64,000 nucleotides of DNA from Halobacteriovoraceae bacterium (GCA_963719505.1 CAVRCF010000003.1:32001-96000); one strand, 5' to 3'. Shown: positions 1 to 12,199, numbered from the stretch's first letter. Notes: generated from the letters alone by a model not told the origin. Numbers and translations: made by a program.

Positions 1-1203
1 AACATTGCCAACGCGGGGACACACGGTTTCAAACGCTCAAGAGCAGAATTTCAAGACATGTTAGCAAAAAGTCTAAAAGGTATCGATGGTGGAGATCAGA
101 TCGGTTCAGGGACAAAACTTGCTCACGTCACAGCTCAATACTCTCAAGGGAGTATCAAAAGAACAGAAAATATTACAGACGTAGCCCTAAATGGAAATGG
201 ATTTTTCACAATTAAGGCTCCATTTGGTCAAGGTTATACAAGAGATGGTGCTTTCCACTTCGACAAAGAAGGTCAATTGATCACTGGTGATGGTTACCAA
301 GTTATGGGTTTCCAAGCTGATGACAAAGGAAAGATCACAGCAAAACAAGATGTTATTAAATTAGGAAATACAACAGTTCCAGCTGAAGCAACTTCAGAAG
401 TTGAGTTCTCTATGAACGTTGACTCAAGAGAGAAGCCTAAGCAGTTTAACCCACTTAACCCAGAAGACACTTCAAACTTTAATACAAGTGTTACTGTTTT
501 TGATAATATCGGAACTCAAAGAGTTGTCACGATGTACTTTAACAAACTAGGGCCAAATCAGTGGGAATACCATGCAATGGCAGATGGCAAAGACGCTCAA
601 GGTGGAGTTGAAGGTCAGATGGTTGAGATGGCAAAAGGTAATTTACAATTTGATTCAAGAGGTAGACTTCAGTCAGAAACTCCACAGTTAAACTCTTTTA
701 ACTTTAATAATGGAGCGGCTGCGGGACAAGAAATCAAGTTCAACTTTGGTGAATCAATTGCTGAAGGTGGAGATGGAAAAGGTGCAAGTACACAGTACGG
801 AACTGACTCTTCAATCGCAAGACATACACAAGACGGGAATAGTGCAGCAACTCTTTCTTCATTATCATTTAATGACGACGGTGTTCTATCAGCTTCTTAC
901 GATAATGGTACAACAAGAGATATCGCACAAATTGCCATCGCAAAATTTGAAAACAACGAAGGTCTCTTCAAGACAGGTAAAAACCTTCTTAAAGAAACAA
1001 GAAAGTCTGGTCAACCGGCAATTGGTCAACCAGGAAAAGATGGAAGAGGACAAGTTTACTCTAAGTCTATCGAGCTTTCTAACGTTGATATCGCAAATGA
1101 ATTTATCGATATGATGGGTGCACAAAGAAACTTCCAAGCAAACACAAGAACGATCACAACGAGTGATCAGATGCTTCAAGAAGTTCTTAATATCAAGAGA
1201 TAA
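1..1203 (+). CDS. flgE: Flagellar hook protein FlgE (5' end outside window)
   Basis: Frame open from base 1 (NIANAGTHGFKRSRAEFQDM); YTRDGAF motif; C-terminal ELSNVDIANEFIDMMGAQRNFQAN of hook/rod proteins; hook-length insertion domain. Confidence 0.93.
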   Translation, partial: NIANAGTHGFKRSRAEFQDMLAKSLKGIDGGDQIGSGTKLAHVTAQYSQGSIKRTENITDVALNGNGFFTIKAPFGQGYTRDGAFHFDKEGQLITGDGYQVMGFQADDKGKITAKQDVIKLGNTTVPAEATSEVEFSMNVDSREKPKQFNPLNPEDTSNFNTSVTVFDNIGTQRVVTMYFNKLGPNQWEYHAMADGKDAQGGVEGQMVEMAKGNLQFDSRGRLQSETPQLNSFNFNNGAAAGQEIKFNFGESIAEGGDGKGASTQYGTDSSIARHTQDGNSAATLSSLSFNDDGVLSASYDNGTTRDIAQIAIAKFENNEGLFKTGKNLLKETRKSGQPAIGQPGKDGRGQVYSKSIELSNVDIANEFIDMMGAQRNFQANTRTITTSDQMLQEVLNIKR

Positions 1204-1352
1204 TCTCTAGGTATTAAAAAATAAAAAGTATAAGTTGCAATTGAGGTAGATGTGAGAGACCTACCTCAATATTCACGCAACGAAATGGAAGCAAGAAGCC
1301 TCCAAATTCTTTTTGCTGACATAAAACACATAACAACAAAATATCAACGAAG

Positions 1353-1382
1353 AAAAAGCCCCAGGAATTTGGGGCTTTTTTT
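1353..1382 (+). terminator. Intrinsic terminator downstream of flgE
   Basis: AAAAAGCCCCA-ggaatt-TGGGGCTTTTTTT. Confidence 0.8.
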
Positions 1383-1392
1383 GTGAGAGAAA

Positions 1393-1995
1393 GTGATGAA
1401 AAAAATTATAGAGAATATGCCAAAGGTTTATGAAGACAATGCAGAAGCTTTTCATAAGCAAAGAGATAAGTCGTTGTTTGAAAAGGCGTGGCTCGATAAA
1501 TTCCTTAAGCACGTTGACGGAGAGGTCCTAGATATCGGCTGTGGGAGCGGAGATCCCATTACTAGGTATTTGATAATTGAGGGATATAAAGTTACTGGTG
1601 TTGATCAATCTAATTCAATGATAGGAATAGCAAAGAAAAATTTTCCAAAAAATGAATGGCTTGTAGGAGATATGAGACAGATTAGTCTGGATAAAAAATT
1701 TTCAGGTATTATTGCTTGGAATAGTTTTTTTCATTTAACAAACTCTGATCAGAAAATGGCTTTTAAAAAGTTCTTGTATCATCTTCTACCTGAGGGCGTG
1801 CTCATGTTTACTGCTGGACCAAGTAATGGTGAAGTTTTAGGACGTGTCAATGGTTTTGACGTTTATCACAGTAGCATGTCAAGCGATGAGTATAAAACTG
1901 AACTAGAGAAACTTGGAATGCAAATTATCGATTATAAACTTGAAGACTCAAGTTGTAATATGCATTCAGTTTATCTAGCTAAAAGAATGACCTAA
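1393..1995 (+). CDS. Class I SAM-dependent methyltransferase
   Basis: VLDIGCGSG motif I, GVDQS, AWNSFFHL. Confidence 0.9.
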   Translation: MMKKIIENMPKVYEDNAEAFHKQRDKSLFEKAWLDKFLKHVDGEVLDIGCGSGDPITRYLIIEGYKVTGVDQSNSMIGIAKKNFPKNEWLVGDMRQISLDKKFSGIIAWNSFFHLTNSDQKMAFKKFLYHLLPEGVLMFTAGPSNGEVLGRVNGFDVYHSSMSSDEYKTELEKLGMQIIDYKLEDSSCNMHSVYLAKRMT

Positions 1996-2523
1996 AGTCT
2001 CTTTATAGAGATACCATGTAACTAAAACTAATGAATGGTTTATAACACCAGAATCAATCATCTGTTGAACCTCGGAAATGCTTTCCTTTACAACTTCAAT
2101 TTCTTCATGCTCATCTAGTTTAAGATCTCCAAAACTATCAAGTCCTGTGGCCAAAAAGTGATAACAAAAATTATTAAAATGAGCGGGATTAGGTCTGCAA
2201 CTTCCAAGTTCTTTGATATCAAATTGACTAGCTCCAGTTTCTTCAAGGAGTTCTCTTTTGGCAGCCTCTAGTGGATTTTCACCCTCATCAATGATTCCCG
2301 CTGGGAATTCATAGGTAACTTCACTGGTTCCAAATCTGAACTGTTTCACTAGGATAACCTCACCATCACGAGTTATCGGTAGCACATTGACCCAGTTTCT
2401 GGACTCAATGACAGTAAATTCAGATTGTTTACCACTTGTAGGTGATTGAAATTGTTGAAAAAAGACTTTAAAGATCTTTGCGTCAAGAACTTCGCGTTTT
2501 TTGCCACTTATCCACTTTTTCAT
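1975..2523 (-). CDS. NUDIX hydrolase (ADP-ribose pyrophosphatase-like)
   Basis: Nudix box GIIDEGENPLEAAKRELLEETG; QFRFG..EFPAG. Confidence 0.9.
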   Translation of the reverse strand: MKKWISGKKREVLDAKIFKVFFQQFQSPTSGKQSEFTVIESRNWVNVLPITRDGEVILVKQFRFGTSEVTYEFPAGIIDEGENPLEAAKRELLEETGASQFDIKELGSCRPNPAHFNNFCYHFLATGLDSFGDLKLDEHEEIEVVKESISEVQQMIDSGVINHSLVLVTWYLYKETLGHSFS

Positions 2524-2576
2524 TCTTTGCCTTTATAATAATAGAATAGTAAGTTAAATATATACTCGGAGAAAAT

Positions 2577-3014
2577 ATGAAGTTAGTCATTATCATGCTT
2601 TTAACATTATCATCAGCTTTTGCAAAAAACTCATTGGTTGGAGCTTATGCCGAGTATAACTTTGATGCGGGTAATATCAAGGGAACGATGAAAGTTGAAC
2701 TCACAAACTACAATCCAGCTTCAAATACTTTCACACAAACAACAACGACTCATTCCGAAGGCAATACAAATGTAGATACTGATACTGTGTCTGCAGATGA
2801 TATCAATACTCAGGATGAGAATTTAATGATCTTAAGTATCTGTGAGACTGAGCTAGGTGGAAAACTTCAGCAGCTTACAGTTGCGGCCGGTACATTTGAA
2901 ACTTGTAATATCTCTGATACAGATACGAGATTCTACTTTGCCAATGTTCCTTTTGGATACGTAAAACTCATCTCTACAATTCAAACAGTAGAGCTAAAAA
3001 GCTTTTCTTTCTAA
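2577..3014 (+). CDS. Secreted hypothetical protein
   Basis: Signal peptide ending SAFA; GGAG RBS; beta-rich mature region. Confidence 0.75.
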   Translation: MKLVIIMLLTLSSAFAKNSLVGAYAEYNFDAGNIKGTMKVELTNYNPASNTFTQTTTTHSEGNTNVDTDTVSADDINTQDENLMILSICETELGGKLQQLTVAAGTFETCNISDTDTRFYFANVPFGYVKLISTIQTVELKSFSF

Positions 3015-3874
3015 GAAGCTTTTAAAAACTTTCTAACAAAATACCTTTTTATAAAAATCATCCACACGGGCTTTGGTTTTTCTACTTTATGTGTCCATGG
3101 ATTAATAAAGTATCCCCTGTAATTGGAAACATCTGTAATACCTAAAACATTTCGAATCACTTCATAGGCCATAAGTGTTCCGGTATTAATGACCATTGGA
3201 GAAAAAGAAATTCTCTTTCTCGTGCCCGCAGCAATTTCTTTAGCAATATCAGGATCGATATAATCAACATTAGTTGTATGGGTCATAACGAATTCAATCT
3301 CTTTTAAAAAACATCCAGAGAGTACATCTTCACTTAGCTCAGAGTTTTTCTTACCGACACTTGGATAGTCTAGAAACTCTTCCGGTCTAGGATCCCTTGG
3401 TCTCACTGTGTAGACATTAGGAAAGAGGGAAGCATAAGCATCAATGGCTATTTTTCCGTGCTCTTTAGCTTTTCGCATAAGATTAATGGAGGCAAAAGTA
3501 TCATCACACCCATTGACGACAATATCGACTTTGGACAGAATTTTATCTAGCTCAGGCACCCAATCCTCTGGTGCTCTTTCGATCTTTAAATCGGGGTTTA
3601 TCTTTAAGCATCTTTCTATCGTCGATTCTAATTTTGATTCGTCAACATTGTCTAAATCACAAAACACTTGGCGATTCATATTGGAAACTTCAAAGGTATC
3701 AATATCCACTAGTATGAAGCTTTCAATCCCTGCTCTGACCATCGTCATAAGAGCGGCACCTCCCATCCCCCCAACGCCTGCAACAAAGACTCTCGTCTCT
3801 TTTAACTTCTCTTGTTGTGTTGGTGTCACGAAGCCAATATTTCTTGTCGTGAATTCCGAATAGTTAAATGTCAT
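3011..3874 (-). CDS. ThiF/MoeB/E1-family adenylyltransferase lacking Zn-binding CxxC motifs
   Basis: GVGGMGG loop, D-x-D-x-F-E-x-SN-x-NRQ, K and GCDD motifs; start reassigned to ATG 3874 (AAGGA RBS). Confidence 0.88.
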   Translation of the reverse strand: MTFNYSEFTTRNIGFVTPTQQEKLKETRVFVAGVGGMGGAALMTMVRAGIESFILVDIDTFEVSNMNRQVFCDLDNVDESKLESTIERCLKINPDLKIERAPEDWVPELDKILSKVDIVVNGCDDTFASINLMRKAKEHGKIAIDAYASLFPNVYTVRPRDPRPEEFLDYPSVGKKNSELSEDVLSGCFLKEIEFVMTHTTNVDYIDPDIAKEIAAGTRKRISFSPMVINTGTLMAYEVIRNVLGITDVSNYRGYFINPWTHKVEKPKPVWMIFIKRYFVRKFLKAS

Positions 3875-4823
3875 GAGTATCCTTTGAGTTCGGTATAAGC
3901 CATCTAAAGTAGGGAAGAACAATTGTTAAAAATAAAGCTAAGAAAATGTTTACAATAAAATTACCAAGAGCACCTTGTATAACTTTATTTTTTAAAGTAC
4001 GAATAATAAATTTAATATCTAAAAACGCGACCTGCATAAAGTCATCACCGCGGGCATAGTCTAGACTGTCTTCCAAAAAGACATCCACTCTTGTGTCTGC
4101 TCTATATTTTGCACATTGAGCAAACGTCTTTTTAAGGTTATCAGATCCCCCTGTATAGGAGTCTTCTATGATAAAGTCCTCAGCTAGAAAAATAGCTTCC
4201 TCTCCAACTCCGAAAGCCTGTTTATGCTCATTAAATATTTTCTGGGCAATAATTTTTTGCTCCTGGTTGGGTTCATCTTGGTACATTGACGGATAGCAAG
4301 AGGTATAAAAGTCTTGCACGAGACCAAAGGCTGCTGGGACTTGAGTAACGTTACTTATCCATTGTTTTCTAAATCCATTTTTAAGGAGAATGAAAAGGTT
4401 AGGTAGCCCGTATATTAAAGTTGTAATATTTTTTCCACGTGAGGCTTTAGAGACAAAAGCCAGGCCTAAATGGAGAACTTCTTCTGTCGTCGCTCCCAGC
4501 TCAATATGAAAATAGATCTGGGCTGACATGGCAATAGGTCTATCATCCTTGTCGTAGATGATACTAATAATCCTTTTAGCTAAGTCTGATGCTTCGCCTT
4601 TTAAAACACCATATTCTGGGACATCAATTGCATCTTCTGAGTTTGCCACAACATCGGTGACATCTTTAATGATTCTTTGAAGTTGTTCCTCTGTGCACCA
4701 AAGAGCTGGCTTTTCCCAAATTTCAAACTTTAAACCACCGCGAAGTTCTATGCGACAATTAAATCTCTCACTGTCCGTTGTAACAGCTTTTATAATGGAA
4801 TAGAGATTTCTAGCGACGAGCAT
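3864..4823 (-). CDS. Hypothetical protein with GNAT-like acyl-CoA-binding motif and C-terminal TM helix
   Basis: LHLGLAFVSKASRGKNITTLIY resembles GNAT motif A; hydrophobic C-terminus; start ATG 4823 with GGAG RBS. Confidence 0.6.
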   Translation of the reverse strand: MLVARNLYSIIKAVTTDSERFNCRIELRGGLKFEIWEKPALWCTEEQLQRIIKDVTDVVANSEDAIDVPEYGVLKGEASDLAKRIISIIYDKDDRPIAMSAQIYFHIELGATTEEVLHLGLAFVSKASRGKNITTLIYGLPNLFILLKNGFRKQWISNVTQVPAAFGLVQDFYTSCYPSMYQDEPNQEQKIIAQKIFNEHKQAFGVGEEAIFLAEDFIIEDSYTGGSDNLKKTFAQCAKYRADTRVDVFLEDSLDYARGDDFMQVAFLDIKFIIRTLKNKVIQGALGNFIVNIFLALFLTIVLPYFRWLIPNSKDTHDI

Positions 4824-6003
4824 AGGTATCTCCAATGATGAGAGCGGTAATTTTTCCAAAACACAGGCTCATCTCGTCTATACTCTCTGATGGGTAAACC
4901 TCGACAGTTAATATCGTTTCATCATCGAGATAATAAAAGACATGACATTTGTAAAACTTGAAGGCTTTTTCTATTTCAATCTTAAGCTCTCTACAAATAT
5001 CTAATTCCTCCTGATGAAGGGGACTATCCAGCAGATCGATGGAGAGGACTCTGGACTTATCTTTTAGAAACTGTTGAAAATGAATGAATTTATTTTCATT
5101 GAGCTCATTGATATTTATATAGCGAGTTCTCTTTACGTAATTGAGAAGCTCTATATCTCTCACTTCTTTAAAATGGATAAGCTCTTTAGTTGCAGACTTT
5201 ATATCAAAGCGGTAGATCTTAGAAATATTGCTAAAGATCGACTTAAAGGTGAGTTCGATAAGAAATGAGGCTATGACAATAAATGAAAAGATACTCCAGT
5301 CAGCATTTGGAATGAGAAAGTAGAGGGTATAGGAGAATCCTAATATTTTAATAATCGAGAAAAACGAGCCCAATAACATATTTTTTCGTGTTAAGGAGTG
5401 TGAATTATTGATCATGGCCGTGACGATGAAGACAATAGGAAAAATAAGAAGCGCTGAGGGACGAGTTGAAAAATAATTTCGACTTAGTGTCCAGTCAACG
5501 AGAAGAATAATTAAGGCAGAAGCCATGGCGATAAGAGAGCCAGAGTATCTTCTTTTTTCAAAGTTTGATTTCGCTGATTGAAGACCCTTGAAGTTTAGAG
5601 CATACAGATAGCCAAATATAGATATTTGCCAAATGAACGATAGGCCCAACCAATATACTGTAACGTGGTAGTCTGTCGCTGTTCCTATTAAAAGAATAAA
5701 GAAGATAGTGCTAATGTAGAGCTTAAACTTTATGGAGAGCCTAAGTTTTCCAATTTTTTCAAAGAAAATGAGAATACTAAACATGCATAGGGTGAGAAAA
5801 AAGTGCTCTAGATTATAGGCGGTAGACTCAACGGTTCTTTCAGAAATGGATCTAAAACTATAGGCCAGCCCTAAACTGAGTGTCATAAATCCGTAAATGA
5901 TTCTAATAGAATCCTTCTTTTTCATGATAAATGCGGACGCGGCTAAAAGAATGAGACTCAGCGAAGCCAGAGCATTCAGTTTAGCGATAAGAATATCTGT
6001 CAT
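4810..6003 (-). CDS. Multi-pass membrane protein with soluble C-terminal region
   Basis: About 8 hydrophobic segments followed by a ~140 aa hydrophilic tail; overlaps the next gene. Confidence 0.75.
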   Translation of the reverse strand: MTDILIAKLNALASLSLILLAASAFIMKKKDSIRIIYGFMTLSLGLAYSFRSISERTVESTAYNLEHFFLTLCMFSILIFFEKIGKLRLSIKFKLYISTIFFILLIGTATDYHVTVYWLGLSFIWQISIFGYLYALNFKGLQSAKSNFEKRRYSGSLIAMASALIILLVDWTLSRNYFSTRPSALLIFPIVFIVTAMINNSHSLTRKNMLLGSFFSIIKILGFSYTLYFLIPNADWSIFSFIVIASFLIELTFKSIFSNISKIYRFDIKSATKELIHFKEVRDIELLNYVKRTRYININELNENKFIHFQQFLKDKSRVLSIDLLDSPLHQEELDICRELKIEIEKAFKFYKCHVFYYLDDETILTVEVYPSESIDEMSLCFGKITALIIGDTYARR

Positions 6004-6009
6004 GATGCC

Positions 6010-6037
6010 TTATCGGAGTAGTTGACAAAAACATTAA
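6010..6037 (-). promoter_or_regulatory. sigma28 (FliA)-like promoter for the 6003 operon, probably leaderless
   Basis: Minus strand TTAA-N16-TCCGATAA, then 6 nt, then ATG; no SD. Confidence 0.6.
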
Positions 6038-6062
6038 AGAATTCTTGAGGTTTTGACGATAT
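6035..6062 (+). promoter_or_regulatory. sigma28 (FliA)-like promoter for the 6069 gene, probably leaderless
   Basis: TAAA-N16-GACGATAT, then 6 nt, then ATG 6069; no SD. Confidence 0.55.
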
Positions 6063-6068
6063 GAACCT

Positions 6069-7166
6069 ATGGAAATTAAAACTGATAGATTTAAAGACTT
6101 TTTTGAAGTCCCGTTTAGTATTTATAAAGGCTCAAACTACGTTTCACCTTTCAAAGATGACCTTAAACGTTTTCTCAATAAAAGGAACCCCACATTTGCG
6201 GGTAAGGATAATTTTGAGATCTTTACTCTTTATCAAGGTGGCAAGTGTATCGGAAGGATCTGTGCACATGTTCATGGAAAGTATAATTCCCACTACAAAT
6301 CCAAAACAGGATTCTTTGGCTTTTTTGATTGTATAAATGACCAGGCAGCAGCCAACCTCCTTTTGGATTCAGCTTGCACTTGGCTCAAGCATAAAGGGAT
6401 GACAGAGGTGTGGGGAAACTTTAATCTGACAACCCAGCAACCTTTTGGCGTGATGACTGAGGGATTTGAAAATAAGCCCTATATGGAAATGCTCTATAGT
6501 CCAAAATATATAGCTGATCTCTTGAGAGCTCGTGGGTTTAGTCCCGACTTCCCAGTGACAACCTTTGAAATTGATTTAGATAATGCTCTTGAAAATGACT
6601 TACAATCCGCTAAAGTTGCAGAGATTTTAAGCAGTGACGACTTTGAAATCAGAAAGGTTTCAAAGAAAAACTTTAAAAAACAAATGGCCCAGTGCTGTGA
6701 ACTTTTAAATATATCTTTTGCAAAAAATCCACTCTTTGTTCCCATTTCAAATGAAGAATTTTGGTTTCAAGCCAAAGAGATGACTTATATTTTAGATGAA
6801 GAGATTACTCAATTTATTTATCATAAAGAAGAAGTTGCAGGTGTTGTCGTCTGCGTCCCTGACCTAAACCCTGTTCTTGAAAAGTTTAAGTCACGTCTTG
6901 GATTAGGACTTATTTATAATCTTCTTCGTCTTAAGAAAAATAAGGATCGTGCTCTTTTGGTATTCGCATCAGTAGATCCGAAGTTCCATTCCCAAGGCTT
7001 AGGTGCCGCTATGTTTATCCGCTGTATTGAAAACCTTGTAAAAAATGGATACAAAAGTCTAGGAATAACCTGGGTTAGTGATTCAAACAAAGCGTCTTTA
7101 GCCGGGATTAATAAACTCAAGCATAAAAAACTTCATAGGCTTTATATCTTTAAAAAAGCTTTATAG
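6069..7166 (+). CDS. YghO/bacterial ceramide synthase (bCerS)-like tandem GNAT acyltransferase
   Basis: FFEVPFSIY..PF, GRICAH, GFFGFFD, GVMTEGFENKPY, C-terminal VDPKFHSQGLG acyl-CoA motif, ITWVSDSN. Confidence 0.8.
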   Translation: MEIKTDRFKDFFEVPFSIYKGSNYVSPFKDDLKRFLNKRNPTFAGKDNFEIFTLYQGGKCIGRICAHVHGKYNSHYKSKTGFFGFFDCINDQAAANLLLDSACTWLKHKGMTEVWGNFNLTTQQPFGVMTEGFENKPYMEMLYSPKYIADLLRARGFSPDFPVTTFEIDLDNALENDLQSAKVAEILSSDDFEIRKVSKKNFKKQMAQCCELLNISFAKNPLFVPISNEEFWFQAKEMTYILDEEITQFIYHKEEVAGVVVCVPDLNPVLEKFKSRLGLGLIYNLLRLKKNKDRALLVFASVDPKFHSQGLGAAMFIRCIENLVKNGYKSLGITWVSDSNKASLAGINKLKHKKLHRLYIFKKAL

Positions 7167-7706
7167 AGGTGATATCATCGAACGAAGATGCTTATTGAAT
7201 TTCTCTAAAAGCTCTTCCGTTGGAACAAGTTGTCTTTCTGTAATTCCAGCAAGATCAAAAATCTTTTTTGCAATCTTATGACTCTCAGTAAGAGCGTGCT
7301 TGTTTGAAAGGTAAATGACTTCTTTCACACCAGAGCTGGCCAGTAACTTTGCACATTCATTACAGGGAAATAACGTTACATAGCAGCGGCTGTTTTTTAG
7401 ACTTCGAGGTGAGTGTAAAATAGCATTGGCTTCAGAGTGGACGACATAGCCGTATTTTTGATGCTCTAAAGGCTGAGATTTGTCTTTTCCCCATGGGAGT
7501 TTAGTCTCATCAATCCCAGCAATAAAACCATTGTAGCCCATTGTTATTTGGTGGTTAAATTCATCAACAAAAACACTTCCCACTTTTGTGGCAGGATCTT
7601 TTGATTTAAAACTGGCCATCATCGCTTGCAACATAAAGTACTCATCCCAAGTGAGAGCACTTTTGGCTTCAAAGTAATTTGGATTTTTGCTTAAATCTTC
7701 AGGCAT
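7161..7706 (-). CDS. Deoxycytidylate (dCMP) deaminase
   Basis: WDEYFM, SKDP, GYNG, HSEANA and PCNEC zinc motifs. Confidence 0.92.
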   Translation of the reverse strand: MPEDLSKNPNYFEAKSALTWDEYFMLQAMMASFKSKDPATKVGSVFVDEFNHQITMGYNGFIAGIDETKLPWGKDKSQPLEHQKYGYVVHSEANAILHSPRSLKNSRCYVTLFPCNECAKLLASSGVKEVIYLSNKHALTESHKIAKKIFDLAGITERQLVPTEELLEKFNKHLRSMISPL

Positions 7707-8674
7707 TAGAAACTCACACTATCTGGGTCAACACCAATAGAGTCGTCAGGCGTGTAGTTTTCTGTATTGTATTCCTGTTCTGTTGAATCTGCTTTCATAA
7801 GTGGTTTTTTGTTAAGCATGATTACCTGATCGAGATGATTGCGAAGAGTTGAGAGGCCTTTGATCACCTTTTCCATATCTTCGTGATTAGATGTCATCTC
7901 TTCAAGAATGACTTTAGCTGCGAGCTTATTAAGTCTTTTCGTTAGGGTATCAATACTTTTATATTCTTTTGGAAAACTTGGTGCAAATAAGACATCGTCA
8001 ACTGCTTGGTCAACGCCCTTTGATTTAATTGCCTTAACTAAATCTTTCACTTCACGAGTTGATTTGTCTTTTACCATATCAACAATCTTGTCTTGATCTT
8101 CTTTACCAAGTTTAATTATTTCGTTCGTTTGTGAAGCGTTTAATTCTCCGTGCTTTCTATACTCTTTAACTTTATCAGAAGAATTAGCATCTCTATCAAT
8201 AGCACTTTTTATTACTTTTTTAGAAAGACCCGTTTTCTCAGAAGTTAGGTCGATGAAAGATCGTTCTTCATTAGGGAGATCAACATGAGTGTTTACGCCT
8301 TCTTGAGTTGTCATATCTTCATCTTTAACTTTCTTAGCATTTGGATAAAGTTCTTCGTAGATTTCTCGTCCACGATTAAGGCATTTTTCGAATTCAACTT
8401 TGGTAAGGTCTTTTCTAACAAGGTTTTCATCAATTGAGATAAGCTCTTGTTCAGCTTCTGTTTTATCAACACGGTAAACGGGAACTTCCGACACACCTAG
8501 CTCTTTTAGAGCACTATATCTTCTGCCGCCAGCGATGAGTTCATTGTTATTATTGATAACGAGAGGACTGATAAGTCCCACTGTCTCTATACTCTTTTTT
8601 AGTTTTTCGATATTTGTTTCAACTCTTAAATATGAACTTTTAGTTTTGATGTCAGTGATTGAAATCATTTCCAC
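7706..8674 (-). CDS. ParB/Srx N-terminal (CTPase) domain protein with HTH
   Basis: SIETVGLISPL, IAGGRRY (GxRR), DENLVRKDL; HTH-like SEKTGLSKKVI; GTG start with AGAGG RBS. Confidence 0.85.
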   Translation of the reverse strand: MEMISITDIKTKSSYLRVETNIEKLKKSIETVGLISPLVINNNNELIAGGRRYSALKELGVSEVPVYRVDKTEAEQELISIDENLVRKDLTKVEFEKCLNRGREIYEELYPNAKKVKDEDMTTQEGVNTHVDLPNEERSFIDLTSEKTGLSKKVIKSAIDRDANSSDKVKEYRKHGELNASQTNEIIKLGKEDQDKIVDMVKDKSTREVKDLVKAIKSKGVDQAVDDVLFAPSFPKEYKSIDTLTKRLNKLAAKVILEEMTSNHEDMEKVIKGLSTLRNHLDQVIMLNKKPLMKADSTEQEYNTENYTPDDSIGVDPDSVSF

Positions 8675-8822
8675 GAGTACCTCTCTAGTTGGTGTCTATA
8701 AAAGTTAAATGCAATTGTGTGTGTGCGCTGGAGTTTGCTTCAAGGGAATAATAAAGTCTAGGATTTTCTAAAAAGAGGGTAATAATTCAGGGTTTTGGGC
8801 GGTGAGTTTAAAGTGGTTTTGT

Positions 8823-9059
8823 TTACTCTTCGCCGTCATCACCAATGGCACCAACCGGGCAGCACGCAAGAGCATTTTCACATTCTTCTTTGGCTTCTTC
8901 AGTTTCTGGCTGATTTGTAACAAAAGCATGACCGTCATCATCGTTCATGGCAAAAAAGCCAGGGGCTTCAACAACACAGGCATCACAAGCAATACATTGA
9001 TCATCAACGTAGTATCTGCCTTCTTTATTCATTGACCACTTTGCTTCTTTATCTGCCAT
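8823..9059 (-). CDS. Ferredoxin (single cluster)
   Basis: CIACDAC...CCPVGAI. Confidence 0.9.
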   Translation of the reverse strand: MADKEAKWSMNKEGRYYVDDQCIACDACVVEAPGFFAMNDDDGHAFVTNQPETEEAKEECENALACCPVGAIGDDGEE

Positions 9060-9089
9060 CACTTATCCACGTGCTCTTGATTAAAGAGC

Positions 9090-9117
9090 AAAAAAAAGCC
9101 CACCTAAAAGATGGGCT
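9090..9117 (-). terminator. Intrinsic terminator after ppiD-like gene
   Basis: AGCCCA/TGGGCT stem followed on the minus strand by a T run. Confidence 0.6.
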
Positions 9118-9139
9118 CTAAAGGTATTTATAGTCTTTC

Positions 9140-10633
9140 TTACAATAGATTTGGATATGTGACAACCTTTGCGTTGTCCTGAAGAAACTTTGAGATATCA
9201 GTTTGTAGTTGATTAGTCAGTCCGGTTGATGCAACTTCTTGCTCAGTCTTTAGGGCTTGTTCAACTTCAGCTTTTACTTCATCGTCAGTCATTCTTTTTG
9301 TCACTTTCGCCATCGATATATTGAGAGCGCTCTCTTCCATGATAAAGTCTTTTTTCGCTGTGAAAATCTCTTTTACTTTGTCAGTCGGTATAGTCACCTC
9401 TTCAACTCTTAGGTCAAATTGATTCACTTTTGCCTGCGGTTTGTGAGTAAAACCATATTTCTTTGCAAGAGCTGTTACTTCACCGTAGTTTTCATCTTGG
9501 TAAGCTTTCTCTAGCTTTCCTTTAATGGACTCAACGAGATCGTTAAGAGCTTTTCTATTACTTTTTTGAAGGTGATTTCTCGCCACTTTATTTTGAACTT
9601 CAGAGAGTTCTTTCTCAACAGCAGCCTCTTTATCGGTAACATAGATAATGTGATACCCATAGCTAGTTTTAATAGGTTCAGATATTTGACCCTTTCTCAT
9701 TGAGAAAGCAGCATTTTCAAATTCTGGAACCATTCTACCTTTTGTGAACCAACCAAGCTGCCCACCTTTGGCACCTTGACCTGATGGATCTTCAGTCTCT
9801 TTACCTGCAATCGTTTTAAAGTTCGATCTGGTAAGTCTTTTCTTTGTCGCTTTTGCTTTCTTTAAAACATCAGCCTCACTATTATTAGCATCAATTTTGT
9901 AAAGGATGTGACGGGCTTCAACTCGAGCCGGTTTATTGAATTCTGACTTCATAGAATTGAATAGACCCTCTAGGATCTTTTCATTTTTCTTTTCTTCAAC
10001 AAAGGCTCTAACTTCTTTATCTGAAACCGTAACATACTTTGTTAAGTCTTCTTTTTTTACTTCAACAGCATTAGCAGTTACCGCATTTTTCTTAAATCTT
10101 TGGATATCTCTAATATAACCTTTTGAAGGAGACAAAGAGGAGATAATTGTCGAGATTTTTCTGGTTGCAATATCATTGGCAATAAGTTCTTCGTATTTGG
10201 CAGGAGCAAAGTTATTTTGAGCCAAAAGTGCTCTATACTTATTCACGTCAAATTTCTTATCAGTTAAAAAGTATGGAGTTTTTTTAATCTCTTCTTTAAT
10301 CTCTGTCTCTCCAGCATCAAGATTCATATCTTTCGCAAGATTTAAGATAAGCTTTTGCTGCACAAGCCTATTTATAACGCCTTCTTTTATTCTAAATTGA
10401 CGTATTTGCTGATTCGTTAGAGCCTTGCCTCCAAACATTTGAGAAAAGCGGGCAAGTTCTTGATTATAAGCGTTTTGATACTCGCTAAAAGTTATTGGCT
10501 CACCGTCGACAGTTCCTACAGCACCTTGGCTGGAATTAAAGCCATCAAAGCCTGTGAGAGCAAAGCTGACCATGATTGCACCGAGGAAAAAAGTAATGAT
10601 CACGTATGATGTTTTACTTTGAAATTTATTCAT
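9140..10633 (-). CDS. ppiD: PpiD/SurA-type membrane-anchored peptidyl-prolyl isomerase
   Basis: N-terminal TM, SurA N-domain, parvulin motifs ARHIL, GGQLGWF, MVPEFE, YGYHII. Confidence 0.85.
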   Translation of the reverse strand: MNKFQSKTSYVIITFFLGAIMVSFALTGFDGFNSSQGAVGTVDGEPITFSEYQNAYNQELARFSQMFGGKALTNQQIRQFRIKEGVINRLVQQKLILNLAKDMNLDAGETEIKEEIKKTPYFLTDKKFDVNKYRALLAQNNFAPAKYEELIANDIATRKISTIISSLSPSKGYIRDIQRFKKNAVTANAVEVKKEDLTKYVTVSDKEVRAFVEEKKNEKILEGLFNSMKSEFNKPARVEARHILYKIDANNSEADVLKKAKATKKRLTRSNFKTIAGKETEDPSGQGAKGGQLGWFTKGRMVPEFENAAFSMRKGQISEPIKTSYGYHIIYVTDKEAAVEKELSEVQNKVARNHLQKSNRKALNDLVESIKGKLEKAYQDENYGEVTALAKKYGFTHKPQAKVNQFDLRVEEVTIPTDKVKEIFTAKKDFIMEESALNISMAKVTKRMTDDEVKAEVEQALKTEQEVASTGLTNQLQTDISKFLQDNAKVVTYPNLL

Positions 10634-10787
10634 TAAGAATCCCTTTTTATCTTTTAAATTTAAGTTAAAATTCTATTATCTTTTTGAGTAAAGTCAATCA
10701 ATAACCCCCGTTTAGAGATTGGCATAAGCCTTTCGTTTGGGTAGTGTTGAATGAATATTTAATGTCTTTTTACTGCGCGGTGTTGCT

Positions 10788-11669
10788 TTGAGAAATTTTA
10801 CAGTTGATTCTTCCCGCTGGAAGCTTGCCAATAATATAATTGTCTTGGTGATAGCCTTGTGGGGAGTGTCAAAACATCAATATACCATCAATAGTGTTTC
10901 AACTTTTGAATCATTTTTGATCGAGGCTTTTGCTCCAATCCAAAGGGGAACTCTTTCTGTTAAAGAGAGAATCTCCTATATGTTCGACCACTATATTATG
11001 ATTGTGAACACCTCAAAAAATAATGAGGAGCTCAAGGACCAAGTGGCCACACTAGAGAATGAAATTTTTGGTCTTAGCGAAGTTGAAAAAGAAAATGAAA
11101 GATTAAAACAGCTGTTAGAGTTTGGGAAAAATATCCCAAGAAAAAAAGTTCTCGCTCAAATCGTCTCACTTGACTCTTCCAATGAGTTTAAAGTTTTGAG
11201 GATTAATAAAGGTGAAAGCGATGAACTCAAGCTCTATAGTCCGGTCATCACCATGACTGGGCTGGTGGGGTATGTGTACCGATTGACTCCCAATTATGCC
11301 GATGTTCTCACAATCTTAGATCAAAATAATAGAGTGGATGCCATCGTTGCAAGAACTCGCTCTCACGGAATCGTCGAGGGAACTGCGGGGTTTAAAACAA
11401 GGCTTAAGCACGTCAATAGAACTGAGGCGATAAAAATTGGTGATGAAATTGTCACGGCCGGTTTGGGGGCCATTTATCCCAAAGGCATAAAAATTGGAAA
11501 AATTTCTCAAATCGATAAAGAGAATTTTGGTATCACCCAAGACGTAGAGGTTGAGCCATCTGTTGATTTTAATAAGTTGGAGGAAGTTGTTGTGCTTCTT
11601 GAAGATCCGACTCTTCCAGCGATGAGTGAAGAAATTGAAATCGAACAAAAAGTGGAGGAGAACAAATGA
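10788..11669 (+). CDS. mreC: Rod shape-determining protein MreC
   Basis: TM plus coiled coil ENERLKQLL, INKG, GLVG, TAGLGAIYPKGI; operon context. Confidence 0.93.
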   Translation: MRNFTVDSSRWKLANNIIVLVIALWGVSKHQYTINSVSTFESFLIEAFAPIQRGTLSVKERISYMFDHYIMIVNTSKNNEELKDQVATLENEIFGLSEVEKENERLKQLLEFGKNIPRKKVLAQIVSLDSSNEFKVLRINKGESDELKLYSPVITMTGLVGYVYRLTPNYADVLTILDQNNRVDAIVARTRSHGIVEGTAGFKTRLKHVNRTEAIKIGDEIVTAGLGAIYPKGIKIGKISQIDKENFGITQDVEVEPSVDFNKLEEVVVLLEDPTLPAMSEEIEIEQKVEENK

Positions 11670-12199
11670 GATACTCTGCCTTAGAAATTTTTTATGGAAC
11701 GATTAAGACTTGTCTGCTTTTAATCTTTTTAGAAATTTTTACTACAGCTTTTTTACCTAGTATGGGCATTGAAAACTTTAAGCCTGCTTTTAGTGTTCTC
11801 ATTGTTCTGTTTTTGGCTTTTCGATTTGATAACCCTTTTCTTCCCTATTTAATTTTTATCACTCAATACCTCCATTCTATCTTCTCTATTGAGGGGTGGG
11901 CCATTGGAACTCTGGCGGGAATACTCGTTTCATTGTCGTTAAGATTTTTAAAAGATCTCCTCGATTTCTCTACGGCCATATCGACAATTATCGTTGTTCA
12001 GATTTTTCAATTAGCTTGGTTTGTCTTGATCTCACTGATGTTGTCGATAAAGCTTGGAACATTTGATTCTTTTATAAGTATCTTTTGGCAGTTTGTTCCA
12101 GAGAGTTTTGTTCTATCGATTTGTTCTCCCTTTTTCTTCTCAATTCTTGAGAGGTTTTGGAAAGTTAACCGCTCTCACAGTCACGGAGTTTCAATTTAA
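11666..12199 (+). CDS. mreD: Rod shape-determining protein MreD
   Basis: Hydrophobic 177 aa protein between mreC and mrdA. Confidence 0.75.
   Translation: MRYSALEIFYGTIKTCLLLIFLEIFTTAFLPSMGIENFKPAFSVLIVLFLAFRFDNPFLPYLIFITQYLHSIFSIEGWAIGTLAGILVSLSLRFLKDLLDFSTAISTIIVVQIFQLAWFVLISLMLSIKLGTFDSFISIFWQFVPESFVLSICSPFFFSILERFWKVNRSHSHGVSI

Follow-up and report, generated by a model that had tools for sequence, protein, structure and literature searches.

Four genes in a 64,000-nucleotide stretch of DNA from a Halobacteriovoraceae bacterium (GCA_963719505.1 CAVRCF010000003.1:32001-96000, hereafter the window) form a reduced copy of a conserved membrane-associated module. They encode a GNAT-fold protein with a C-terminal membrane helix (P2), a polytopic membrane protein (Mem), an enzyme of the ThiF family (ThiF) and a divergently transcribed second acetyltransferase (GNAT2) (Table 1). 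The most likely reading is a pathway bound to the membrane: a GNAT would N-acylate an amino acid or an amine, and ThiF would activate or cyclise the product. We hold this reading with middling confidence, the gene association, folds and motifs having been established here and the chemistry being drawn by analogy from published pathways.

The conservation of the module was followed in a scan of one genome per prokaryotic species. At least 598 stretches were matched, at least 596 of them encoding a relative of P2, and the counts given below refer to the best 80 of these P2-encoding stretches. The 80 loci come from six phyla as recorded: Bacteroidota, Bdellovibrionota, Myxococcota, Pseudomonadota (alpha, beta and gamma), Acidobacteriota and Gemmatimonadota. 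All their open reading frames (ORFs) were searched with the window proteins and with neighbours found along the way. P2 was present in 80, Mem in 72, ThiF in 60, GNAT2 in 51, an oxidase of the nitroreductase superfamily in 48 and a cytochrome c in 35. An earlier reading of the window, made from its sequence only, had tied its proposal to the co-occurrence of these genes in other genomes, which proved to be wide and places the arrangement far beyond chance. All-against-all clustering of every ORF recovered six families and no other that was broadly shared in the 80 loci, antisense shadow frames and lineage-specific synteny excepted. Gene junctions across the loci are mostly 4-nucleotide overlaps.

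Architectures were counted in the 57 loci that extend at least 4.5 kb to the left and at least 6 kb to the right of P2. All six genes are present in 19 of them, Mem being deduced only from the gap between ThiF and GNAT2 in three. The set is complete but for the cytochrome in 10 loci and but for the oxidase in 6; 6 others combine Mem, P2 and ThiF with the oxidase. The architecture of the window itself (Mem, P2, ThiF and GNAT2) was found in 2. Taken together, these architectures make P2 and Mem the invariant core of the module. ThiF is carried by 43 of the 57 loci, every one of which also has GNAT2, the oxidase or both. The cluster is rare within the phylum of the window, high-scoring P2 orthologues (378-445 bits) occurring in 5/301 sampled genomes, the window genome included. 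Recurrent neighbours in Rhodobacteraceae (glycerate-kinase-like protein, FGGY kinase and ABC ATPases) were considered as parts of the system and judged to be lineage synteny. L065, L043, L026 and similar loci of Rhodobacteraceae and Rhizobiaceae have the form with P2 and Mem only, followed by a glycerate-kinase-like gene (DUF4147+MOFRL). In about a dozen such loci, FGGY kinase and sugar-isomerase-like genes precede P2 and Mem, probably also through lineage synteny.

P2, whose gene defines the family to which the cluster belongs, matched no Pfam or NCBIfam model. A search of the clustered protein collection yielded 533 relatives at E<=1e-3, nearly all of them unnamed. The family has 37 invariant columns, among them HLGL, WxSxVxQVP, YTGGSD and RGDD. 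The sequence-only reading had made its proposal depend on a GNAT fold at 3864-4823, and this fold was obtained from the AF2 model (pLDDT 84.8), from Foldseek and from VIA alike. Foldseek gave 56 matches at E<=1e-3, of which those listed are all acetyltransferases, with NatD as the best (2.8e-6). The 50 matches listed by VIA all bear GNAT-type titles (Z 11.3-9.1) and cover residues of about 30-270. By the criterion of the beta4-alpha3 segment that binds coenzyme A (CoA), a conserved R-x-K-(G/S/N) segment lies after the HLGL strand. The fold is followed by a hydrophobic C-terminal helix (residues 285-309) with an invariant P...W. The models indicate that P2 is a GNAT-fold acyltransferase with a C-terminal membrane helix and predicted CoA binding. 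A shorter paralogue (262 residues, 24% identity, without the C-terminal helix) is encoded in the source genome assembly, G000, at G000:C1:969148-969897 (locus L009, 1489-2277, plus strand), where it is flanked by a classical nitroreductase (Pfam 1e-28) on one side and by an M20 peptidase on the other; its family occurs in 10/301 genomes of the phylum sample, G000 among them. A metagenome scan with P2 returned one irrelevant short locus.

ThiF matches the Pfam family of that name (2e-34) and has the residues expected for adenylation: R11, GxGGMGG (33-39), DxD (57-59), SNxNRQ (64-69), K81 and NGxDD (121-125). They are invariant in 25/25 family members, the window copy included. These members have no CxxC and no conserved cysteine but share a basic C-terminal tail. 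The protein also lacks an N-terminal peptide-clamp extension, its alignment starting at residue 1 of 287. In NCBIfam it stays under every cut-off, the best scores being 102 bits on PRK08223 and 94 bits on PRK14851, a model of a ThiF-oxidase fusion. The ThiF model gives 85 bits (cut-off 159), MoeB 82.7 (cut-off 266) and TcdA 46.8, over residues 39-116 only (cut-off 304). The source assembly is 83.5% complete, and genome-wide negatives hold for its assembled part, in which no match to the ThiS/MoaD family exceeded the cut-off. Two ThiF-family genes pass the Pfam cut-off in the assembly. The second, at G000:C4:240863-241573, is TcdA-like, with 246 bits over its full length, under the cut-off of 304. 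Since ThiS/MoaD is missing and the TcdA-like gene is separate, the sulfur-carrier and tRNA roles are covered elsewhere or absent. The same lack of ThiS/MoaD, together with a ThiF devoid of conserved cysteine and CxxC, fits a small-molecule substrate. These scores speak for the sequence-only reading, which a ThiF grouping with TcdA or MoeB would have contradicted and to which the locus did not look like thiamine or molybdopterin biosynthesis or a ubiquitin-like system. The same reading saw no ThiS, MoaD or other ubiquitin-like protein (Ubl), E2, JAB or precursor peptide nearby, and no such gene recurs in the 80 loci. By analogy, the predicted role of ThiF is the ATP-dependent activation or cyclisation of an N-acyl amino acid.

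The relatives of ThiF were collected by comparing its family profile with 1.84 billion representative proteins, and the 15 proteins of at least 500 residues among the best 150 matches were all scanned with Pfam. Seven of them carry a nitroreductase domain, which is the architecture of OxzB and TrzS. One each is joined to PilZ plus a FeeM N-acyl amino acid synthase, to a PlsC acyltransferase, to a methyltransferase, to a glycosyltransferase and to a RoxA-like cytochrome c; a second ThiF occurs in two, and nothing else is recognisable in the last. Within the module itself, L032 has a ThiF-GNAT2 fusion with a Ser/Ala linker and P0121 is a P2-ThiF fusion. The proposal of an amide-linked lipid or signal as the product agrees with these domain fusions and with the chemistry published for relatives of ThiF, which leads from N-acyl amino acids to acyl-oxazolones. 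The suggestion of a flagellar-sheath component as a target gained no support. P0126, P0135 and P0146 are close members of the ThiF family fused to a RoxA-like di-haem cytochrome c, or tandem ThiF-ThiF proteins; a hydrophobic segment separates the parts of the ThiF-cytochrome c fusion, which may be a merged gene call. In other genomes of the window's phylum, a sister ThiF subfamily adjoins FeeM synthases in 3/4 loci examined, a nitroreductase in 1/4 and a seven-transmembrane (7TM) protein of the ceramidase family (PF05875) in 1/4. These lone ThiF proteins (L103-L106) match the ThiF segment of PRK14852, some adjoin a FeeM with PilZ, and their loci present a parallel theme of ThiF, acyltransferase and 7TM protein. 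No full-length PRK14852 protein was found in 151 genomes of the phylum, where only lone ThiF genes were matched.

The combination is the hallmark of pathways that were described only in recent years. According to de Rond et al., OxzA N-acylates tyrosine with acyl-CoA, and OxzB, a ThiF-nitroreductase, converts the product to an oxazolone by cyclisation and oxidation. In mycobacteria, TyzA, TyzB and TyzC are described as performing the same chemistry via three separate proteins (Grigg 2023). TrzA and TrzS are reported to make tryptazolones, cyclisation obligatorily coming first (Kleetz 2025). The chemistry given for the Oxz, Tyz and Trz pathways comprises acyl-CoA-dependent N-acylation, ATP-dependent cyclisation by ThiF and O2-dependent desaturation. 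Much as is predicted for the cluster, the N-acyltransferase gene of the oxazolone synthetase system OxzAB, described from Pseudoalteromonas rubra and other proteobacteria, adjoins an ATP-dependent cyclase of the ThiF family and an oxidase of the nitroreductase superfamily. The likeness extends to a substrate that would be a small molecule here too, the absence of a Ubl partner and the occurrence in aquatic proteobacteria. In contrast to OxzAB, ThiF and the oxidase are separate genes in the cluster, and the oxidase is missing from the present genome. The cluster also has two different GNATs, one of them membrane-anchored, and its module is extended by Mem, a membrane protein of 7TM-like build, and by a di-haem cytochrome c lipoprotein.

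The Tyz pathway is closer in its gene division, being described with a separate acyltransferase (TyzA, 322 residues), ThiF cyclase (TyzB, 318 residues) and single-domain lidded flavin oxidase (TyzC). Its acyltransferase gene is reported to be divergent from the others, as in the window, and a gene for a transmembrane protein (mmpL9) lies nearby. TrzS reportedly needs the conserved Asp of its adenylation motif, and the matching NGxDD is invariant in the ThiF of the cluster; D124/D125 are equated with TrzS D217 on the basis of this motif rather than by aligning the two proteins. Unlike in Tyz and Trz, the cluster oxidase scores best on an Acg-type model, its FDO-A status not being shown. The hosts also differ, belonging to Gram-negative phyla, and Mem, GNAT2 and the cytochrome c are extra. 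The window genes had been put forward as a candidate new system, a description that is better replaced by that of a variant of the kind combining an acyltransferase and a ThiF cyclase, with or without a flavin oxidase, a kinship that the sequence-only reading had missed. The cluster would work like such pathways, but membership of the Oxz/Tyz/Trz kind is unproven, since no desaturase was found in this genome and the acyltransferases belong to other families.

Several other systems show parts of the same pattern. The clusters for stieleriacines, thalassotalic acids and kyonggic acids (N-acyl dehydrotyrosines) are described as joining NasY, a synthase of N-acyl amino acids, to overlapping ThiF and nitroreductase genes. 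Species without the ThiF and nitroreductase genes are reported to yield saturated N-acyl amino acids only, a parallel to the loci with P2 and Mem alone; the NasY synthases themselves are of the FeeM/NasY type. In the lipothrenin (N-acyl-threonine) cluster of Streptomyces aureus, LitM is a lone ThiF of about 297 residues described without a flavin oxidase partner, as in the window. LitM differs in being presented as TcdA-like and tied to the conversion of L-Thr to D-allo-Thr, and its pathway is said to form the amide via a fatty-acyl AMP ligase and an acyl carrier protein (ACP), not via a GNAT. TcdA (the dehydratase converting t6A to cyclic t6A), ThiF and MoeB have the Rossmann adenylation core in common with the window enzyme. 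TcdA is moreover reported to cyclise an N-acylated threonine carboxylate to an oxazolone. The window ThiF is set apart from all three by scores far under their cut-offs and by the absence of CxxC and of a Ubl partner. Literature searches turned up no account of P2, Mem or the six-gene module; the similarity networks published with the Oxz, Tyz and Trz work may already include the ThiF or oxidase subfamily, and one supplement of Grigg 2023 had no match to the taxa searched.

Mem, like P2, matched no Pfam or NCBIfam model. Its AF2 model (pLDDT 81.9) has nine predicted membrane helices and a C-terminal cytoplasmic alpha/beta domain (residues of about 268-396). The first seven helices are 7TM-receptor-like, with VIA matches to G-protein-coupled receptors, rhodopsins, ACER3 and AdipoR2 over residues 1-201/259; the Z values (16.6-13.0) are modest and common for any helical bundle. 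For the model, no Foldseek match reached E<=1e-3 (E>=0.029). Only E82 and K94 are invariant in the family alignment A3 (28/28 rows), and the window copy is just 10-18% identical to the other members. A comparison by hhalign with the ceramidase-family protein of the sister-ThiF locus was not significant. The predicted complex of P2 and Mem scored 0.42, the best of three controls 0.00, with a contact agreement of at least 65% between runs and a partner pLDDT of at least 74. The mark used for such predictions is reached by 58/80 solved complexes and by 2/110 mismatched pairs; at scores up to 0.60 it comprises just 7 of the 80 solved complexes but both mismatches. The prediction lends weak support to the pairing.

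In GNAT2, residues 242-345 match Pfam Acetyltransf_1 (6.3e-7), and the same domain is found in 23/23 family members. The protein had been called a tandem GNAT: the C-terminal domain is clear, and the tandem part is plausible given the hhalign match between the N-terminal and C-terminal halves (E 1.7e-4, probability 50%). On this one hhalign result, the N-terminal half is plausibly a degenerate duplicate of the GNAT domain. Sequence and profile searches of GNAT2 against the PDB gave weak generic GNAT matches only (E>=0.026). The earlier label of GNAT2 as ceramide-synthase-like is unsupported, nothing in the results having pointed to it. No sphingolipid gene recurs in the 80 loci, as judged by the clustering of all ORFs.

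The two other proteins of the full module are known here from relatives only. The cluster oxidase matches the model of the Acg-family flavin mononucleotide (FMN) oxidoreductases (3e-35 to 2e-46), though without reaching its cut-off, and also the C-terminal halves of two fusion models, Rv1355c and PRK14851; Acg was the sole match of note in PDB sequence searches. The cytochrome c is about 550 residues long, carries two CxxCH motifs and a lipoprotein-type signal in 5/5 copies examined, and matches the models of RoxA-like proteins and di-haem peroxidases. In the source assembly, it has only partial paralogues with 30% identity. The pathway had been thought self-contained, which is doubtful because most relatives carry these two additional genes, neither of which was found in this genome.

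A working model can be drawn from these elements. The C-terminal helix of P2 would keep it at the inner membrane beside Mem, where the enzyme would draw on acyl-CoA or acyl-ACP for the N-acylation of an amino acid or an amine. ThiF would then adenylate the free carboxylate of the lipo-amino acid, and attack by the amide oxygen would close the ring of a 5(4H)-oxazolone (azlactone). Desaturation of the oxazolone by the Acg-like flavin oxidase would follow in most relatives, and the periplasmic di-haem cytochrome c lipoprotein may process the product further. GNAT2 may transfer the product onto a second amine or attach another acyl group, while Mem would bind, hold or export the lipid. The genome as assembled lacks both the oxidase and the cytochrome c, so that either a saturated N-acyl amino acid or an azlactone, itself reactive, or a lipid derived from it would be the expected product. 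Expression would probably start from FliA-type promoters, i.e. in the motile attack phase.

Several observations weigh against this model. Mem and P2 stand alone in 13/57 loci and with the oxidase only in 1/57; the former number indicates that the core function needs no ThiF. The flavin oxidase, as desaturase a defining element of the known pathways, is absent from positions 1-12000 of the window, and no homologue of the cluster oxidase was found in the assembly, the best match to the Acg-family model scoring 20.6 bits. Acg and Rv3131 are themselves placed in the FDO-B group by Grigg et al. and are not linked there to oxazolones. Mem and the cytochrome c are without counterpart in the published pathways. 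The top structural matches of P2 are protein N-terminal acetyltransferases (NatD, RimI) rather than FeeM or acyl-homoserine lactone synthases, and neither P2 nor GNAT2 showed significant profile similarity to FeeM domains in hhalign. ThiF scores 38.8 bits on the Rv1355c (TrzS) model compared with 83-85 on the ThiF and MoeB models. The P0121 fusion may have arisen from reading through two genes that overlap.

Some of the same data lend themselves to other explanations. P2 and GNAT2 could acylate or aminoacylate an envelope molecule such as a phospholipid head group, lipid A, a peptidoglycan precursor or an exopolymer, ThiF supplying an adenylate-activated carboxylate in place of aminoacyl-tRNA and Mem serving as flippase or scaffold. 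The membrane anchor of P2 and its polytopic neighbour (Mem beside P2 in 72/80), the restriction of all loci to diderm phyla and the periplasmic lipoprotein cytochrome c of the full module would suit such a role. So would the PlsC-type glycerolipid acyltransferase fused to one ThiF relative and the weak match of GNAT2 to the FemAB-like Acetyltransf_6 (23.4 bits against a cut-off of 22, seen in 6/23 family members). We nevertheless consider modification of the envelope or of membrane lipids unlikely: no envelope-biosynthesis gene recurs beside the cluster in the 80 loci, the multidomain relatives of ThiF point mainly to free N-acyl amino acids, and the patchy spread (5/301 genomes of the phylum sample) is more in keeping with an accessory metabolite than with a core trait of the envelope. 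The resemblance of the first seven Mem helices to 7TM receptors would suit a sensory device, in which the cytoplasmic domain of the receptor would control P2 as a protein acetyltransferase and ThiF, GNAT2 and the oxidase would make or modify the ligand. A language-model search places Mem near HisKA_7TM/GAF clusters (0.88, below the 0.9 line and a lead only), the best structural matches of P2 are protein N-terminal acetyltransferases, P2 and Mem are alone in 13/57 loci, and PilZ domains occur in sister systems. Neither Mem nor its surroundings, however, contain a kinase, cyclase, helix-turn-helix or other output domain; the Z values of Mem are of the size common for any helical bundle and just two of its residues are invariant, which leaves a sensor quite improbable.

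The third explanation, which we regard as very improbable, is that ThiF adenylates the C-terminus of a peptide or protein encoded elsewhere, as for a ribosomally synthesised and post-translationally modified peptide (RiPP), microcin C, pantocin or a ubiquitin-like protein, with the GNATs providing immunity or tailoring. Most characterised ThiF-like enzymes are reported to act on protein or peptide C-termini, and MccB (1e-9) and PaaA (2.7e-9) are among the PDB sequence matches of ThiF. Yet the enzyme has no N-terminal peptide-clamp extension, the 80 loci have no conserved small ORF and their 4-nucleotide overlaps leave no room for one. No ThiS/MoaD match over the cut-off exists in the genome, genes for E2, JAB, a protease or an exporter do not recur among the 80 loci, and the PADLOC models match the Rossmann part of ThiF only. 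For the last reason, a defence-system reading was dropped as well, the PADLOC models concerned being those of E1-E2 systems; P2, Mem, GNAT2, the oxidase and the cytochrome c had no PADLOC match.

The reading as an N-acylation and ThiF activation pathway can be pushed further, to a version that we are more inclined to doubt than to accept. P2 and Mem would constitute a new two-part membrane machine, a tail-anchored GNAT on a 7TM-like protein, which makes a lipo-amino acid at the inner membrane and hands it outward. ThiF, the Acg-type oxidase and the periplasmic di-haem cytochrome c would convert the product stepwise to a reactive oxazolone-type lipid signal or weapon. In predatory bacteria, FliA would turn on the reduced version during the attack phase, with a role in contact with the prey or in remodelling of the envelope. 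If true, this would be the first pathway context outside actinobacteria for the long-orphan oxidases of the Acg/Rv3131 type. Independently of this extension, the cluster supplies a gene context for Acg-like flavin oxidases. The discovery of acyl-oxazolones and related N-acyl amino acids dates back no further than 2021-2025, and their physiological role is called open in the Oxz, Tyz and Trz papers. The cluster would widen acyl-oxazolone chemistry to at least 596 stretches, the best 80 loci coming from six Gram-negative phyla, and would tie it, along with N-acyl amino acids, to the membrane and periplasm; the two core proteins, P2 and Mem, are without any family model. The apparent wiring to an attack-phase sigma factor in a predatory-type bacterium offers a concrete stage of the life cycle in which to seek the function.

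Table 1. Genes and candidate promoters of the cluster in the window.
Feature	Position	Strand	Details
ThiF	3011-3874	-	287 aa, ATG start; alternative longer TTG frame reaching 3922
P2	3864-4823	-	319 aa; alternative TTG start at 4859
Mem	4810-6003	-	397 aa; first gene of the operon
GNAT2	6069-7166	+	365 aa; divergent from Mem
FliA (sigma-28)-type promoter of the Mem-P2-ThiF operon	6011-6037	-	TTAAT-N16-CCGATA, 7 nt, ATG at 6003
Possible second sigma-28-type promoter, GNAT2	6035-6061	+	TAAAG-N16-ACGATA, 7 nt, ATG at 6069

The promoter of the operon resembles the sequence TTAAG-N16-CCGATA that is reported from 92/140 attack-phase promoters of Bdellovibrio bacteriovorus and assigned to FliA (Karunker et al.). 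The possible promoter of GNAT2 is its mirror image, the -35 boxes of the two opposed promoters overlapping. Over the whole genome, CCGATAA ends exactly 6 nucleotides before the first start codon of 13 ORFs of at least 100 codons, compared with 0-3 cases for each of seven control heptamers at the same spacing. With the box placed 4-8 nucleotides before the start, 31 genes are found, many of which, by eye, have signal-peptide-like N-termini. The full promoter motif occurs at 52 genomic positions, of which 24 fall within 40 nucleotides of the start of a long ORF; three scrambled -10 boxes gave 0-1. The -10 variant of the GNAT2 type is not enriched genome-wide (2/679 ACGATAT sites at that spacing). 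Among the flagellin genes, 2/7 carry TAAAG-N14/15-GTCGATA, further upstream. The operon promoter is well founded as a sigma-28 motif and points to the attack-phase regulon. The suggestion of sigma-28-driven expression in the motile phase finds support at the level of the motif and in this genome-wide positional enrichment. As the box lies so close to the start codon, the mRNAs from these promoters are probably leaderless.

The layout of the four genes is as first described, with three overlapping genes on the minus strand and a divergent GNAT. P2 and ThiF overlap by 11 nucleotides and Mem and P2 by 14, and the divergent gap (6004-6068) measures 65 bp. The neighbours are unrelated housekeeping genes, for a FlgE-like hook protein, a methyltransferase, a NUDIX protein, a dCMP deaminase, a ParB-like protein, a PpiD-like isomerase and MreC. 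The ends of the unrelated flanking genes overlap, so no room is free for a precursor ORF. A 145-residue protein without a family match is encoded on the plus strand at 2577-3014; it is not conserved beside the cluster in the other loci. Its N-terminus is signal-peptide-like, and its gene converges on that of ThiF, the two ends overlapping by 4 nucleotides.

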